Assembly: GCA_951406725.2 (NCBI GenBank)
Contig: OX597818.1
Coordinates: 69,192,001 to 69,256,000 of the forward strand
Length of the DNA: 64,000 nucleotides
Direction of reading: 5' to 3'
Source of the DNA: Octopus vulgaris
Lineage: Eukaryota
Shown: piece after piece, positions 13,208 to 43,048 of the stretch
Layout of the letters: each line of letters starts with the position of its first letter
How positions within the stretch are numbered: the first letter of the stretch is position 1
The notes under the pieces: model-generated
What the model was told of the DNA's origin: nothing
Seen by the model: only the letters and a program-made list of their open reading frames with translations
Databases searched by the model: none
Program-made: the position numbers and the translations under genes

Positions 13208-13760
13208 AGATGCAGGAGTGGTTGTGTGGTAAGTAGCTTGCTAAACAACCACATGGTTCCGGGTTCAGTCCCACTGCGTGGCATCTTGGGCAAGTGTCTT
13301 CTGCTATAGCCCTGGGCCAACCAATGCCTTGTGAGTGGATTTGGTAGACGGTAACTGAAAGAAGCCTGTCGTATATATCATCATCATCATCATCATCATC
13401 ATTTAGCGTCCGTTTTCCATGCTAGCATGGGTTGGACGGTTCTGCTGGGGTCTGTGAAGCCAGAAGGCTTCATCAGGCCCAGTCACACTTTCAGCACACC
13501 CGCCCCCGCTGTATATATATATATATATATGTATGTGTGTATGTTTGTGTGTCTGTGTTTGTACCCCTAGCATTGCTTGACAACCGATGCTGGTGTGTTT
13601 ACGTCCCCATCACTTAGCCGTTCGGCAAAAAGAGACAGATAGAATAAGTACTGGGCTTACAAAGAATAAGTCCCGGGGTCGATTTGCTTGACTAAAGGCG
13701 GTGCTCCAGCATGGCCGCACTCAAATGACTGAAACAAGTAAAAGAAAAAGAAAGAAAGAA
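13208..13760 (+). mobile_element. Full-length bipartite SINE with internal microsatellite and a nested fragment (13378-13485) of the RTE-tail family
   Basis: Head gcaggagtggttgtgtggtaag..gggttcagtccc; 3' half gcttgacaaccgatgctggtgtg...ccagcatggccgcactcaaatgactgaaacaagtaaaaga. Confidence 0.85.
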
Positions 13761-13968
13761 AGAAATATATACATACACACACACACATACATCACATATA
13801 TTTCTCTTCTCTCCTCTCTTTCTCTCATCTCTACATCTTTTCTATTTCTTGCATTTCCTCCTTCATTCACTATGCCTATCTCTCAGTCCTTGACCAGCTC
13901 ACATTCCCCAATCCTGTCCTCACACTCCTGTTCCTCTGTATCATTGCTATTGTTGATGTTGTTGTTCA

Positions 13969-14345
13969 GGTCACGGCCTGGAATCGAACTCGGAATCTTT
14001 GGGTTAGTAGCCTGCGCTCTTAACCACTACTCCATATTCCCGTGGGCATATAGCATAGTGGTTAAGAGCGCGGGCTACTAACTCCAAGATTCCGAGTTCA
14101 ATCCCAGGCAGTGACCTGAACAGTAATAAAGATGATGATGATGATGATAATAATAATAACAACATCGAAAAATACCTGAGGAATGAGAACCCAGGTTCGA
14201 AATTTTCCCAAGACACCTGATGAAGGCTGGAGGGTATATCAGCTGAAACATTGTGTTAACAACAAACAAGATGAGGACAAATATCCATCAAATGTAAATA
14301 ATGTAAATAATGTACATAATTCCTCATCTCTTAAATATAGAACTG
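13969..14345. mobile_element. Palindromic tRNA-head/hammerhead element, copy 1
   Basis: Head-to-head tRNA-like units at 13969-14041 (-) and 14044-14116 (+), GAT/AAT spacer, hammerhead at 14212-14257, conserved tail ending aaatatagaactgt. Confidence 0.85.
14212..14257 (+). ncRNA. Minimal type I hammerhead motif with CpG-decay substitutions
   Basis: GACAC-CTGATGA-A-GGCTG-loop-CAGCT-GAAAC-ATT-GTGTT; the intact version is at 33932-33977. Confidence 0.65.
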
Positions 14346-14859
14346 TTTTACCCTGTTTGTTGTTCTATCACTGCCTCTGGCTTTGGTTTTCTTGTTTAAT
14401 TATGAACCATATGTTTATGTAGATATGTGTGTGTGTGGGTAGGGCACGTATATGTATACATTTATGCATGCACAATGGTCTCTAAAATAGGCAGAATCGT
14501 ATATTCTTTAAGCTGAGGAATTTAAGCATTGAATTAAATATTTAAGTATTAAATATATTCTCTAAGCTGAGAAATTAATGTATTGAATTAATCAATTTAA
14601 GTATTAAATTAAGTATTTAAGTACTTAATGTGTTCGTTATGAAGAGAAAGAGGGCCCAGTAACATGGATATATGCTTTATCAATCCATTGATAAATATTT
14701 TATTCCCTGTCATCACATTTGTCTTTGAGAACAGCAGGAGTTAAAATGGTTCTATTTTAAGAAAGTTTAGCAACTACAGAAATAAACTCCAATTAATTCA
14801 TGAATTATGGGATTGTTGATTAAATACATTGCAGGTTAACACTGTATCTGTAAATTTAT

Positions 14860-26757: not shown

Positions 26758-27492
26758 AGGCACAGGGGTGGCTGGGTGGTAAGAAGCTTACTTCCCAAAC
26801 ACATGGTTCTGGGTTCAGTTTCATAGCATGCATATGTCTTCCACGGTAGTCCCAGAATGACTAAAGACTTGTGACTTGATTTGGTAGACAGAAACTGAAA
26901 GAAGCCTTTCAGGCGCCTAAAGGTGGTGAGCTGGCAGAATCGTTAGTGTGCCAGCTGAAATGCTTAGTGGTATTTCGTCTGCTATTATGTTCTGAGTTCA
27001 AATTCCGCCACAGTTGACTTTGGCTTTCATCCTTTCGGGGTCGATAAATTAAGTATCAATTATGCACTGGGGTCGATGTAATCAACTTAATCCCTTTGTC
27101 TGTCCTTGTTTGTCCCCTCTGTGTTGAGCTCTTTGTGGGTAATTAAGAAAAAAGAAACTGAAAGAAGCCCATTGCATATGTAACAAACTAAGGCTGTGTA
27201 GATTTTAGAACATTTATAAATAGAAGGTTTTGAAAACGTGTTCCGGCGCCCAGCGGCACGATGCTAACACAGCCTTGTGTTTGTGTTTGTTCCCCACCAC
27301 TGCTTGACAACCAGTGTTGGTGTGTTTACATCCCCATAACTTAGTATTCAGCAAAAGAGACTAATTGAATTAGTACCAAGTTTTACACCACAGGTACTGA
27401 GATCGATTGAACTGGCTAAAAATTCTTCAAGGCAGTGCCCCAGCATGGCCACAGCTTAATGCCTGAAAGGTGTGTAAAAGATAAAAGATAAA
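26758..27492 (+). mobile_element. Bipartite SINE interrupted by a second SINE (26907-27152) flanked by a 17-bp duplication
   Basis: agaaactgaaagaagcc at 26890-26906 and 27153-27169 flanks a ggtggtgagctggcagaatcgttag.. SINE. Confidence 0.85.
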
Positions 27493-27680
27493 CATTATAC
27501 CCCAGTGACTTAATCTGGCTTTCAAACTATTTAACTCATTATCCTCATCCATTCACTTTATTCTCCTTTCCACCCATTCCCCACCAACCACATCTTCTGC
27601 GTAGCTACACTGGACCTCAATCCCATGATTTTCTGATGCTACCAAATTCCTAGTACCATTCCTGTGTGCAATTGGCTAGC

Positions 27681-28617
27681 ATCTTGGGGTTAGTAGCCCA
27701 CACTCTTAACCACTACGCCACGGGTATATGGCATTGTGGTTAAGAGCACAGGCTACTAGCCCCAAGATTCTGAGTTCGATTCCAGGCAGTGACCTAAATA
27801 ATAGTAATAATAAAAATAATAATGGGTAGCAAGCCGACCTTCCCTGAATGATATCTCAGCTTCAATTCCCACCATCCATACAGTGTAAAGAGAGGGATTG
27901 CTCAGTGCCTAAAACGTTGAGCAAAGAATATAAGGAGCAATCGTGATACACACCACAAAGAAATGATGAAGCTCAGTAACAATCTATTAAGCAACAACTA
28001 CCCCAAAAGTATATACTATCCACTGCAATTATGAAGAAGAGAGAGGATGAGGCCAACCTACCCTATGTGAAAGGCCTCTCCAAAAAGATACAAAAGATAT
28101 GCGGTCCATATGACATCAGGACAGTATTCAAAAGTAATACAACACTTCAAAATATTTCCTTTGAGTAAAACCACCAATAGAAGAGAATATGACTAAGAAC
28201 TGCATGTACTCCATCCCATGCAGCTGTGGTAGGTTATACAAAGGTGAAACATGCCACCCCCACAAAATAAGGGTAGAGGAACATCACAAAGCTGTGACAC
28301 GAGGAGATATTGATAAATCGGGTATTGTTGATCATGTATGGAAAAATGGAGACCACCTCCCCCTGTGGGATGAAGTTAAAATAATAGACAGAGAACACCA
28401 CTGGAAAATGAGAAAACTAAAAGCATCAGCACATATGCTAGGACACAACAACCTCCTTAGCAGACCGAGTGCAGATATGGGCAGCATATGGGAACTGGTA
28501 TTAAGGAAAGAAAGGAAATAGCTGAAATGTTGTGTTAACAACAAACAAGATGAGGACAAATATCTGTCAAATGTAAATAATGTACATAATTCCTCATCTT
28601 TTAAATATAAAACTGTA
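27681..28617 (+). mobile_element. Palindromic tRNA-head element, copy 2, fused to a Penelope ORF fragment
   Basis: Partial minus head 27681-27720, plus head 27722-27794, (AAT)n, PLE ORF remnant, then the 3' half of the hammerhead and the family tail at 28520-28617. Confidence 0.85.
27829..28521 (+). pseudogene. PLE RT-thumb/linker plus GIY-YIG endonuclease, disrupted
   Basis: KPTFPE*YLSFNSHHPYSVKRGIAQCL..LPYVKGLSKKIQKIC..MYSIPCSCGRLYKGETCHPHKIRVEEH..SGIVDHVWKNGDH..WDEVKIIDRE..RKLK; stops and frameshifts. Confidence 0.88.
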
Positions 28618-31589: not shown

Positions 31590-31670
31590 CAGCAGGCTGC
31601 TATCAAGAATCGAACCCTGTATCTCTAAAATTCCAGCTATGTGCTGTGTACCATTAAGCTAAGTGATCCC
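31590..31670 (-). mobile_element. Isolated tRNA-like SINE head
   Basis: Reverse complement gggatcacttagcttaatggtac...cagggttcgattcttg has A and B boxes but a poor cloverleaf. Confidence 0.5.
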
Positions 31671-32660: not shown

Positions 32661-33555
32661 AAGTTCAGTCATCTGCTGTACACCAGCATCCACCAGGTTC
32701 ATCACCATTTGTGTGGTTGCAAGTCCACAGAATATTATCATCATACAAGTCTATGGTCCAACACTTGAACCTGATGAGGAATTCAATGATGACTTGGAGA
32801 AAATCGCCCAGGCAGCTCCTTATGATGTCCTCATAGTCCTAGGAGACTGGAATGCCAAAAAAGGGCTGGATACATATGACCAGTGGGATGATTTGGGATT
32901 GGAGAAACCAAAAACAGCAATGACCATAGGTGATGCTAGCCACCACATTGTTCCCCAACAAGACCTCACACAGAACGACATGGCATGCACCCAGAAGCAA
33001 GTCTCACAACCAAATTGGCTTCCTCTTCGCACCTCAGAAGTTCAAGTCCAGTATCAACAAGGCTAGGACTAGGACTCTCCCTGGTGTGGACACCAACAGT
33101 GATCATGATGACAATGAGGCTCAAACTGAAAAGGACCCACAACAAAAAGGGCCACACATATTAGGCTTAAGGTAGACAAACTGAACGATCCTAAGGTTAC
33201 ATCTGAGTTTGAGGCAAAAGAAGATGGTGGTTTGTAGCTCTTAACCTTCTACAAGATTATAGAAGCTCCAAAACGGAAAACATCAATGAAGCACTTTGAG
33301 AAATGGCTCCAGAAGTGCTGGCGAGAAGAAAAAGGAAAAATAAACCATGGAACACTGATGACATCTTGGATCAATGCGATTTAAGATGGGTCCTGAGGCA
33401 GACCAAGTTAATGAGTCAGGAGGTAATGAGTCAGCAATCAAAGCACTGAAAAGGTAGGTTAAGAAGAAAATGCCTCAAGTCAAAAGAGAAATATGGAGAG
33501 CAGACCAGTTCAAAATAACTGAAGAAAGGATAAAGAAGGGCAACCGCATACAGGT
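32661..33555 (+). mobile_element. Inverted APE-endonuclease/linker part of the same LINE type
   Basis: IIQVYGPT..EEFNDDLE..LIVLGDWNAK..TWHAP..NQIGFL..RTLPGVDTNSDHD. Confidence 0.88.
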
Positions 33556-33567
33556 ATACATTTTTTT

Positions 33568-33785
33568 TTACCTGTTTTAATCATTAGACTGTGGCCATGC
33601 TGGGGTACCACCTTGAAGAATTTTTAGTCAAACAAATTGATGCCAGTACTTATGTTTTATTTGTTTGTTAAGTCTGTTACTTACTCTATCGGTCTCTTTT
33701 GCCAAACCACTAAGTTATGGGGATGCAGACACACCAACACTATTTGTCATGCAGTAATGGGGACAACACAGTCACAAAGACATGC
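33568..33785 (-). mobile_element. SINE 3' half (family of 13208-13760)
   Basis: tcattagactgtggccatgctgggg...tctatcggtctcttttgcc...taagttatggggatg. Confidence 0.75.
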
Positions 33786-33851
33786 ACACACACACACACA
33801 CGCACACACATTGGTATTTTCAAAGTTTTAGCATATGACACTTGCTCAAGT

Positions 33852-34274
33852 ACAGTTTTATATTTAAGAAATGAGGAATTATGTACATTATTTACATTTG
33901 AAGGATATTTGTCCTCATCTTGTTTGTTGTTAACACAACGTTTCGGCTGATAAACCCTCCAGCCTTCATCAGGTGTCTTGGGGAAATTTCAAACAAGGGT
34001 TCTCATTCACTCTATAATTGCCCACAGGCATATGGCGTAGTGGTTAAGAGTGCGGGCTACTAGCTCCAAGATTCCGAGTTCGATTCCAGGCAGTAACTTG
34101 AATAATAATAATAAGAAGAAGAAGAAGAACATCGAAAAAATACCTTAGGAATGAAAACCCAAGTTCGAAAATTCCCCCTAAGACACCTGATGAAGGCTGA
34201 AGGGTATATCAGTTGTGTTCACAACAAACAAAATGAGGTCAAATATTCATCAAATGTAAATAATGTAAATAATG
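33852..34274. mobile_element. Palindromic tRNA-head/hammerhead element, copy 3, with 13-bp TSD
   Basis: Minus tail plus hammerhead at 33852-34008, plus head 34026-34098, plus tail to 34274; cacttgctcaagt at 33839-33851 and 34275-34287. Confidence 0.88.
33932..33977 (-). ncRNA. Intact minimal type I hammerhead motif
   Basis: Reverse complement: GACAC-CTGATGA-A-GGCTG-GAGGGTTTAT-CAGCC-GAAAC-GTT-GTGTT; loopless stem III with palindrome AACGTT. Confidence 0.75.
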
Positions 34275-35328
34275 CACTTGCTCAAGTGCCACACCATGGC
34301 AGCAGGGGTTGTCCAGTGCCTATTTACCCTTGGTTGGTGATGACAAATGGAAAGTAAGCCCCTTATTTTGATAAGTAAGGTATTTTAATTTGTTTTACAA
34401 ACAGTTTTCCAAGTCAGAATGGAAAAGTTTTCAACTGTTCAGACATAAAACAAATGAATGAACAAGCAGATTTTTGCATGTGTGCATGTGTGCATGTGTG
34501 CACCTTGATGTGCATGTGTGCATGTATAAAAGTATGCACCTTGATGTGCATGAGTGTGTGAGTGAGTGTAATTCTATAATAAGATTAAGATGCTGCAGTG
34601 TAAAAATAAATAATAATCTTTTTACCTTCATTTTATTTTTTAAATAATAATAAAGAATAAAAATGCCTAAAAAAAATACAAACAAATAAACCAGGAGTTA
34701 CAAAGAAAAAATAGACAAAGAGATAGCGATAGAATAAATAAATTTATAAATTAAAAGGATTGGTGTGGTGGTGGTGGTGGTGGTGGTGGTGGTGTGTGGG
34801 GCAGCGATATTTTAATTTATATTTCTCTAAAACAGTTTTTCTTCTTCACTAAGCATACAAAAAGATGATCCACCCACATGAGGAAATGACTCGCTACGTT
34901 CAATGATATTGATTCTGTTGTTATTGTTGTCATCACAATTTATCATTCAGCATTTTCTTCATCCGACCCACCTTTGTTGCAGCTCCAGATATGATGTAGA
35001 TAAGAGAAATTCAAGTCAGATGATCTTCAAATGCACCAGGAAAAAAAAATAAAATAAAATAAATATATAAAATAAATAAAAATAAAGAAGAGAAATGGAA
35101 ATTATAAAAAGATTCTTGAGAGTAGGATGAATTTAGGTCTGTTCAGAGAAGGTAAAAAGAGGGGGAAAAAGGGGAAAAAAAGAGGCTGCTCTTATTTACT
35201 CCAAAGATAACTTCACTTTACATATCATAGATTCATTTTCTTTTTGTCTTGATAAATCTGGAAAAAATAAATGCAAAATGTATTTTTTTTCAGTTAAACT
35301 ATTTACAAATATATACATACATACATAA

Positions 35329-41404: not shown

Positions 41405-43048
41405 GAAAAATAAAAGTTTAAAATGCACAGAATAGTTAAAATATTTTTTATTAATTTATTTAAAGCTTTAACCGGTTTCACAGTTTATACCGATTTTCAA
41501 AAAGTTCAAATAGAAAGACATGGGTTTATGTCGCAGCTGCCTTGCTTCTGACTAGTGTTGAAGCTTACCCTATTTTTATAGGGAGTTCATGCTCAAATTA
41601 GTAAATGTTTTGAATAGGATTTTGTTGGTAGAAGATAGTCACATGATTGATCTTAGATAGTTTTGTAGCTATCCCGTTACGTCTGTGTGTTAGTATCAAG
41701 TGATAATGTTTGGCGTCGTAAGTTAATACTGACACGATTGGCTGAACATGTCCAATCAATAATATCCCTTTTAATCTAGCAAGAAGAATTTTCACAATTG
41801 TCTAAAATCCCGAAATTCGCAATAAAAGACTCCAAGAACTAAAACAGGTACTACTTAAAAGACAATATCCATTAATGCTAATAGACAACGGAATAGAATG
41901 TGTCAAAGCAATAAATATTGAAGAACTATGAAAAACGAAAAACGCTCCAGATATATCCAAAAATCTACCCTTTATCACAACACCCAAGAAACACAGAGGT
42001 TTACAATATTATCCACTAGAACATGCCACTACTAAAACAAGACCCAAGAATGAAAGAATCATTCGAAGTACATAAAGTAATCAAACATAAAATACAATCA
42101 AAGTCCCTCAAAAAATTCCTCACAAGTGCTAAATTAACTTCCATAATTACTACACCAACAGTCAAAAAGTGTGGCTGCCCCGACTGCGGGACCCCCATCA
42201 ACGTTATTCAAGACACAACATACAAATTCAAATCAGGACAGATTTTTAGCGTAAAAATCACTTTACATGTTCTTCAAGGAATTTAATATATACTATCAAA
42301 TGTCAAGGATGTAATGAAGATTACATAGGTCAAACAAAGCTTACTCTAAGAAATAGACTGACCATTCACCGACAACAAATATGAGACCCCAGTACTAGAC
42401 ACATTCCACTGAGTGGACACATAGACATATGTGCAAAAATAAGTCCCCCAAATTCCAAGTTTTCCCATTTTACCTATGTTCAGAGAATGTCACAAATGAA
42501 GTACGGATAAACAAAGAAAATGTTTTCATACAAAATTTCAACCCAAGACTTAAACTTTAACAGAGCACATATACACAAAAAAATTATTCACACACAAAAC
42601 TCATTCTGCCACTTATCATAAGGAACCTACACAGCTAACAAACTAAAATTTAGCCACTGGACTACATAAAAACGACTCCAGTCCACTCTCCCACCAGACA
42701 GATTAAATTTGGTCTGTCTTGATTATAACTAAACATGTTCCCGTAACTGTGTCAGCCTTCTTTTTAGGCGCAAAATATGCTGTCACGTGATACTAACGCA
42801 TAGTCGTAGCGGGAAACGAACAAAAGGTTATAAACTTAGTCATGTGTTCATTTTCTACAAACACATGACAGAAAACATTCAGAGCATTGATTTTGGGGAT
42901 ATTTTCAGTCAACCGTGTCAACCTTAGCTTACGACGCCAAACATTGTCACTTGATACTAACACACGGACGTAGCGGGAACCTACAAAAATTTCTAAGACC
43001 AGTCATATTACTATCCTCTACCAATCAAATCCTATTCAAAACATTTAC
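41405..43048 (+). mobile_element. Penelope-like element with inverted 5' pseudo-LTR
   Basis: ORF remnant 41758-42560: NIPFNLARRIFTIV..L.ELKQVLLKRQYP..KKCGCPDCG..NLIYTIKCQGCNEDYIGQTKLTLRNRLTIHRQQI..HID.C..KENVFI..P.L; 41599-41725 is the reverse complement of 42925-43050. Confidence 0.88.

Follow-up and report, generated by a model that had tools for sequence, protein, structure and literature searches.

A small tRNA-headed element with a Penelope-type end, inserted in one step into an older SINE of Octopus vulgaris

Introduction

Short interspersed elements (SINEs) are normally parasites of LINEs. In a 64,000-nt stretch of the Octopus vulgaris genome (assembly GCA_951406725.2, contig OX597818.1, positions 69,192,001 to 69,256,000 of the forward strand; hereafter the window), an initial annotation drew attention to two opposed arms bordered by a repeated 13-mer, and proposed that the two-armed structure, rather than a single arm, is what moves. 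The locus thus raises three linked questions: did the structure arrive in one insertion, what was copied, and which enzyme did the copying? We find that it is a small decayed element, inserted in one step inside an older repeat, and that the insertion partner of its family is a Penelope-like element (PLE), not a LINE. The architecture is an already published PLE insertion footprint and by itself is no discovery; the less familiar aspect of the family is that it is tRNA-headed, PLE-dependent and SINE-like.

Results

Three copies of the family

The window is composed of AT-rich, animal-type DNA, rich in microsatellites. Searches with BLAST and nhmmer identified three copies of the family in its 64 kb, and no others. 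Copy 1 (~13947-14346, plus strand) consists of an inverted head of ~95 nt, a GT centre, a full arm with a hammerhead motif at 14212-14257, and a tail. Copy 2 (~27678-28616, plus strand) has an inverted partial head of ~42 nt, an AC centre, a head, an (AAT)n tract, the broken 3' part of a PLE open reading frame (ORF; ~27829-28521, RT thumb and GIY-YIG), the 3' half of a hammerhead, and a tail. Neither copy has a target duplication. Copy 3, the structure described in the initial annotation, is the element at 33852-34274, between two copies of the 13-mer.

A single insertion into an older SINE

The 13-bp direct repeat reported at the borders of copy 3 is exact, with a left copy at 33839-33851 and a right copy at 34275-34287 (both plus strand), each abutting the element; these are the two exact matches among seven window sites with up to two mismatches. 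The last T of the left 13-mer is possibly derived from the element (copy 2 continues with a matching base), so that the duplication measures 12-13 bp. To gauge chance, pairs of windows 435 bp apart were placed at random: an exact shared word of at least 13 nt occurred in 3 of 3999 non-low-complexity placements (6000 draws, of which 2001 were discarded as low complexity). The same test unfiltered gave 42 of 3000, the long matches being taken as microsatellites.

The flanks themselves are informative. When they are rejoined around a single 13-mer, the sequence forms a continuous 57-nt match, scoring 12.9 bits, to a profile built from 12 SINE heads in the window; the best of 500 shuffles reached 4.1 bits. 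The head of this older host SINE lies on the minus strand, at 33806-33838 to the left of the insertion, and resumes in register at 34288-34298 to the right. Under the SINE matrix, the score of the 11 nt to the right of the right 13-mer is equalled or beaten by 86 of 127,978 window 11-mers, and that of the 13 nt to the left of the left 13-mer by 968 of 127,974 window 13-mers; the element sides of the two 13-mer copies score -8.8 and -19.5. The earlier suggestion that the target resembles a SINE is thereby borne out. Because the rejoined flanks rebuild a SINE head with one 13-mer, the duplication was created by the insertion of copy 3. A duplication older than the insertion had been named as a finding that would speak against this; the rebuilt empty site, which is an in-window substitute for the orthologous site and not that site itself, holds the 13-mer once.

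Could two independent insertions, or a chance repeat, mimic one unit? The arms of copy 3 differ at 14 of 124 nt, as two separate arrivals might. Nevertheless, one and the same duplication encloses the two arms, the SINE continues in register in the flanks, neither host DNA nor a second duplication lies between the arms, and a chance repeat is met by the 3 in 3999 given above. We consider such a history very improbable and, as first proposed, read copy 3 as the product of one insertion event.

At copies 1 and 2 no target duplication is present, the longest words common to the flanks being 6 nt and 4 nt, respectively, and the left flanks of these two copies do not align with one another (score 38, reached by 6 of 50 shuffles). 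The duplication is thus found at one of the three copies, which is also the sole copy with two tail-type ends.

Two side observations concern the target. The rebuilt site (33839-33851 plus 34288) forms a near-perfect palindrome, in which 2 nt separate 6-bp arms and which covers nearly the same bases as the duplication; it is perfect only through the absence of one SINE-consensus base. Chance may account for it, or such a site may favour a dimeric nuclease. In addition, all three family copies lie 76-205 bp from a body segment of a bipartite SINE (13548-13744, 27276-27473 and 33566-33776), of which the window contains seven; random placements fall within 250 bp of one in 11-14% of cases each, with a threshold of 250 bp chosen post hoc and n = 3.

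Anatomy of copy 3

The left arm (33852-34008, minus strand) is an inverted, 5'-truncated PLE pseudo-LTR of 157 nt with no tRNA head. It differs from copy 1 at 10 of 157 aligned nt and from copy 2 at 6 of 97, and lacks ~110-120 nt, head included. Its distal end carries a one-sided PLE 'tail' extension, 34 nt long relative to copy 1 (33852-33885, minus strand) or confined to 33852-33877 by direct arm comparison: the left arm overhangs the right by 25-26 nt when the arms are compared directly (two mismatches), and the overhang becomes 34 nt if the right arm is fitted to copy 1 (no mismatch). The extension has the same terminal base in all three copies, each of which retains it.

Proximally, the left arm meets a junction with a degenerate remnant of an inverted head (34009-34023, minus strand), comprising five exact bases beside the centre and up to ~15 degenerate ones. 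The AC centre noted earlier was located at 34024-34025; it is the centre of a head-to-head palindrome and stands just before tRNA position +1. This placement recurs in all three copies, with GT in copy 1 and AC in copies 2 and 3, while the left remnants beside the centre vary from ~5-15 nt (copy 3) to 42 nt (copy 2) and 95 nt (copy 1). In the inverted head of copy 2 (27712-27721) the first 8 nt beside the centre are missing, an arrangement consistent with a microhomology deletion.

To the right of the centre follow the tRNA-like head (34026-34102, plus strand), an (AAT/AAG)n spacer recognised from sequence and alignment (34103-34129, plus strand), and the direct PLE pseudo-LTR arm (34130-34274, plus strand), which ends without a tail. 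The GAAAC said to be deleted from this plus tail is indeed gone, as part of an 8-nt deletion at 34212/34213 that breaks the hammerhead of this arm. The right end of copy 3 fits copy 1 without mismatch, including an extra 9-nt unit; the left arm, like copy 2, is without it. Readings of the right arm with and without the unit differ by zero versus two mismatches.

Opposed arms invite comparison with a DNA transposon, and a MITE-like element assembled from SINE and PLE parts would account for the long inverted repeats (62 nt at 90% and 37 nt at 92%) and for the short non-coding body. However, the termini of copy 3 differ and are offset by 25-34 nt, and thus are not mutual inverted copies; the duplication is 12-13 bp long; a hammerhead and a link to a PLE ORF are present; and copies 1 and 2 have no paired ends. 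The MITE reading is largely refuted, to the point of being extremely improbable, and the preference of the initial annotation for retrotransposition over a MITE is upheld by the termini.

The hammerhead motif

A minimal type I hammerhead motif lies on the minus strand at exactly 33932-33977, where it had been annotated. Its stem I is 5 bp and its stem II 6 bp long, an additional base follows A9, and stem III is palindromic. The type I minimal descriptor matches two sites in the window, this one and that of copy 1 on the plus strand, and none in 30 shuffles. The palindromic ACGU stem III is kept only in copy 3, copy 1 having ACAU. Cleavage of the copy 3 motif is predicted between 33937 and 33936, 85 nt from the distal end.

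How far the motif is 'intact', as first described, depends on the yardstick: the word stands by the descriptor and by the literature, and is not backed by Rfam, which returned no hammerhead (and no tRNA family) over copies 3 and 1 at E values up to 10. Over the whole window Rfam gave 242 matches, and among the 150 listed almost all are microRNA models on microsatellites. Thermodynamic folds of the hammerhead are no better than those of shuffles (z from -1.0 to +0.45), as expected of a dimer-type motif; unconstrained co-folding did not yield the active dimer. PLE hammerheads of metazoans are described as sharing the layout of the copy 3 motif, and are thought to work as dimers and to be weak in vitro (PMC4209133). 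The same source describes opposite-strand pairs of minimal hammerheads, 100-700 bp apart, in schistosomes.

The tRNA-like head

The plus-strand head of copy 3 contains both internal promoter elements, an A box at 34033-34043 and a B box at 34078-34086, in keeping with its earlier description as tRNA-like. The two boxes are 34 nt apart in all three plus-arm heads, which make up three of the five matches to the pattern in the window (0.04 expected per shuffle); the remaining pairs, at 31661 and 55161 on the minus strand, come from other tRNA-derived repeats. The pattern missed the inverted head of copy 1. ARAGORN with default settings reported no tRNAs and with relaxed settings reported pseudogenes with inconsistent anticodons, and a phage search with the head produced one match to a phage tRNA, at an E value of only 8. 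Sense-strand runs of four T are absent from both arms of copy 3 and occur once each in copies 1 and 2.

Within the heads (14044-14121 and others), CpG sites are changed at 12 of 48 positions, compared with 16 of 264 at other sites. Such decay suggests germline methylation of these repeats.

A Penelope-like partner

Copy 2 identifies the source of the 3' end. Its head is that of the other copies; an (AAT)n tract and a broken ORF of ~690 nt come next, and it closes with the hammerhead's 3' half and the terminal bases that the others have. As this head and tail are linked in copy 2 with a PLE ORF, the tail is a PLE pseudo-LTR: the 3' end of the family is PLE-type and does not derive from a LINE partner. 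For the ORF piece to lie where it does, with the tRNA head on one side and the hammerhead's 3' half on the other, either a template switch or two deletions would be needed. Frameshifts and stops interrupt the RT thumb of the ORF (27829-28521), and its GIY-YIG part is open over 116 aa.

Of 75 longer candidates, 37 proved to be related to the copy 2 ORF at an E value of 1e-5 or better, with 53-81% identity. Seven of these 37 have a precomputed RT domain; RVT_1 was found in four of the six relatives scanned, three of them above the cut-off; and the stretch 27831-28515 matches residues 343-578 of an RT-containing relative across three frames. The only named relative is Octopus sinensis LOC118763458 (81% over 62% of the query). 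The GIY-YIG label rests on the Atlas and on visible motifs: GIY-YIG proteins make up the closest Atlas clusters (0.94-0.95), 20-29% of whose members carry PF01541, and Pfam recognised neither of the two pieces of the copy 2 ORF and no GIY-YIG domain in the six relatives. DKG is present in 2 of the 37 relatives, most of which are fragments, and no linker zinc finger between RT and endonuclease was seen by eye in protein P0002. An RT followed by GIY-YIG, within a hammerhead-bearing repeat, marks the partner as a Penelope-like element, and we infer that it belongs to the Penelope/Poseidon clade, with which its domain order agrees.

Searches further afield were of little help. The PDB gave group II-like RTs and telomerase, and no PLE structure; the bacterial and archaeal genome collection gave no match to the tail pattern and, with the protein query, one irrelevant weak locus among 16 candidates. 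The sole other match in the window to a PLE relative (42274-42423; 34% over 50 aa of the GIY-YIG region, E 0.026) is weak and is possibly another old Penelope fragment. A purine-rich stretch at 33000-33550 looks, by eye, like a decayed LINE-like coding fragment. PLEs are given as 6.83% of the O. vulgaris genome (PMC13282606), in a paper whose supplement does not mention hammerheads.

Comparison with known elements

The footprint of copy 3 has close counterparts among Penelope and Poseidon PLEs. Rotifer Penelopes are described with inverted pLTRs, duplications of 8, 9 and 10 bp, a 31-bp tail on one end, head-to-head junction palindromes, and ORF-less pLTR-only units mobilised in trans (PMC3846280). 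Drosophila virilis Penelope shows variable inverted ends and a 34-bp terminal repeat (PMC2377424), the same layout is depicted as typical in Fig. 2 of PMC8557442, and the features are listed for curators in PMC8969392. In the account of the anole Poseidon protein in vitro (PMC11167929), both target strands are cut and extended and two internal RT start sites bound the tail; the protein is a predicted dimer, does not need ribozyme cleavage and prefers AT-rich sites, and in the anole element the hammerhead cut falls at +26 and the RT starts at +111-118, to be compared with the 85 nt between predicted cut and distal end in copy 3.

Inverted ends, an apparent one-sided tail of ~30 nt, a junction palindrome, a short duplication and a minimal hammerhead are common to copy 3 and to Adineta vaga Pen2/Pen2a/Pen3a, D. 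virilis Penelope and Anolis Poseidon, and the order of RT then GIY-YIG and the existence of ORF-less units mobilised in trans, in the octopus case only likely so, are common to these PLEs and to the octopus family. A tail of 30-40 bp at one end only serves as a criterion for PLEs; the extension in copy 3 is 25-26 or 34 nt. The differences are that copy 3 has no ORF and bears a tRNA-like Pol III head, whereas the promoters described for these PLEs are of Pol II type, that the centre is fixed at tRNA +1, and that the duplication is 12-13 bp, against 8-10 bp in the rotifer Penelopes.

Among hammerhead-bearing repeats, schistosome Sm-alpha and Sj-alpha elements are described as tRNA-derived, apparently Pol III-transcribed and equipped with a type I hammerhead (PMC2770079, PMC6765202). 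They differ from the octopus family in being tandem or dispersed and in having hammerheads active in vitro; the descriptions consulted mention neither a PLE tail nor inverted arms, and neither a head-to-head centre nor a connection with a PLE ORF. The non-LTR retrozymes of animals are short non-coding hammerhead elements proposed to be non-autonomous PLE derivatives (10.64898/2026.07.22.740005, PMC7229834). They are head-to-tail tandem repeats that make circular RNA, whereas the window contains no head-to-tail tandem hammerhead units and its three copies are all dispersed, inverted and tRNA-headed. Short non-autonomous Penelopes are described from butterflies (10.1101/596502), and a survey of cephalopod repeats treats SINEs and Penelope separately (PMC8967140).

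The remaining comparison is with SINEs themselves. In a classical tRNA SINE, A and B boxes lie in a tRNA-like head, the 3' region is taken from the autonomous partner and the target duplication varies in length. The family differs from such LINE-dependent elements in its PLE partner, in a fixed internal start site in place of a poly(A) or repeat tail, and in its inverted 5' structures.

Discussion

What was copied?

All three copies share one arm of head, spacer and pseudo-LTR, and in copy 2 this arm is linked with a PLE ORF. The reading that we favour, as the probable one, is that copy 3 is one insertion of a non-coding tRNA-like head joined to a Penelope-type end, in which the template was likely the Pol III RNA of a single arm, likely inserted in trans by a Penelope RT/GIY-YIG protein that built both arms at integration. 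The tRNA-like promoter likely allowed the element to borrow the Penelope enzyme. The initial annotation had made the two-armed structure the mobile unit, and on this point we are more reserved: the ends are asymmetric, the left arm is headless, and in copies 1 and 2 the left arm is partial and a duplication is lacking.

The steps, all of whose priming, fold-back and joining we infer, might run as follows. Pol III would transcribe the arm from tRNA +1. If it behaves as the anole Poseidon protein does in vitro, the endonuclease would nick the two target strands 12-13 nt apart, and both nicks would prime cDNA. Synthesis of the right arm, which has no tail, would begin at the inner start site, and that of the left arm, which has one, at the outer. 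The right cDNA would reach the RNA's 5' end and fold back over a few bases; the left cDNA would stop after 157 nt and be joined to the right. If fold-back takes place at the RNA 5' end, then the centre should be fixed at tRNA +1, with left remnants such as those of ~5-15, 42 and 95 nt. Since the left arm has a tail and the right arm does not, the left was not simply copied from the right. Copy 3 later decayed, with CpG loss and the 8-nt deletion among the changes. The scheme departs from published explanations, which attribute head-to-head palindromes to self-priming on an antisense template (PMC3846280) and the tail to resolution of an intermediate by the endonuclease (PMC8557442). The copy 3 target, at 52% AT, also differs from the AT-rich sites preferred by the anole enzyme. 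The scheme rests on three copies.

A challenge to it comes from the centre of copy 1, the reverse complement of those of copies 2 and 3. This suggests that complete two-armed copies existed, either arm of which was able to become a source; different source subfamilies could be an alternative cause. Under a simple model, a flipped, AC-centred two-armed source is 27-121 times likelier than CpG decay of one GC-centred source. Derivation of the AC centre by CpG decay alone from a perfect palindrome was also considered; the decay is real, as the counts for the heads attest, and the simple model disfavours it as the sole cause.

Did a pre-formed two-armed palindrome then serve as the source, with a promoter outside it driving transcription and the PLE protein retrotransposing it in full? 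Copy 3 would be a full copy minus ~110-120 nt of the left arm, and the other two copies would be 5'-truncated in theirs. Such a source would explain, besides the likelihood ratio for the flipped centre, why the centre is the same in all three copies, and its two arms might have differed slightly, for the right end of copy 3 carries the 9-nt unit of copy 1 and the left arm does not. Against this stand the presence of a tail at one end only and the internal Pol III promoter, which faces away from the left arm. The two-armed RNA would, moreover, form a very stable long hairpin (predicted at -173 and -185 kcal/mol for copy 3), the arm-specific variants are inconsistent across copies, and in known PLEs the inverted arms vary in length from one insertion to the next. 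We regard a two-armed source as unlikely.

A third possibility shares with our favoured reading a one-arm RNA, and differs in what integrates. Fold-back of the cDNA, or self-priming on an antisense transcript, would give a full palindromic DNA intermediate, trimmed asymmetrically by the endonuclease and inserted as a unit, the gap in the left arm being a later deletion; the two-armed form would then be the integrating unit and not the template. Such an intermediate matches the published readings of PLE palindromes and tails, would make complete left arms able to serve as flipped sources, and accords with two subfamily-type sites shared by the arms of copy 1. It requires an extra deletion, however, and the arms of copy 3 appear to differ in the 9-nt unit (zero versus two mismatches), while the anole protein in vitro primes directly on both target strands. 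We judge this route distinctly improbable.

Distances between arms are of limited use here. Within copies they are no smaller than between copies: the arms of copy 3 differ at 14 of 124 sites and the heads of copy 1 at 12 of 82, as against 6-16% between copies, with heads differing at 11-13 of 82 sites and tails at from 6 of 97 to 14 of 124. As the arms of one copy are no more alike than those of different copies, the distances do not settle the origin of the arms. Informative sites conflict, and their patterns do not separate the models: two unite the arms of copy 1, one splits those of copy 2 and one groups the right arm of copy 1 with that of copy 3. At one, the left and right arms of copy 2 are unlike, a difference not predicted by fold-back.

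A SINE with a Penelope partner

In literature that covered few subscription papers, we found no description of an element that combines a tRNA head and a PLE tail with inverted ends and a fixed head-to-head centre; the family may already be present, unnamed, in Repbase, Dfam or the O. vulgaris consensus library on Zenodo. If the pattern holds genome-wide, a tRNA-headed element with the full PLE insertion signature adds a PLE-dependent type of SINE, for which the schistosome alpha elements are the nearest precedent. More tentatively, and as a possibility that we hold at less than even strength, the family can be pictured as an octopus SINE whose Pol III RNA, with its fixed 5' end, hijacks the RT/GIY-YIG dimer of a PLE. 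Each insertion would regenerate a palindrome at tRNA +1, with two outward-facing Pol III promoters, and either arm could found a flipped lineage, as in copy 1; copy 3 would be a case of twin priming from two RNA molecules.

The origin of the head-to-head palindromes and one-sided tails of PLEs is, in the accounts consulted, not settled (PMC8557442, PMC3846280, PMC11167929). Should the bolder picture above be true, the family would be a natural experiment in the making of inverted ends, palindromes and tails by PLEs. Genome-wide, a template whose 5' end is fixed and whose copies are probably numerous would allow sense-strand fold-back, antisense self-priming and twin priming to be told apart by counts of junctions.

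The copies themselves are old. Divergence amounts to 3-8% per copy and, given an octopus substitution rate of 0.0036 per site per million years (PMC13282606), a rough estimate of their age is ~10-20 million years. Copy 3 is probably inactive.
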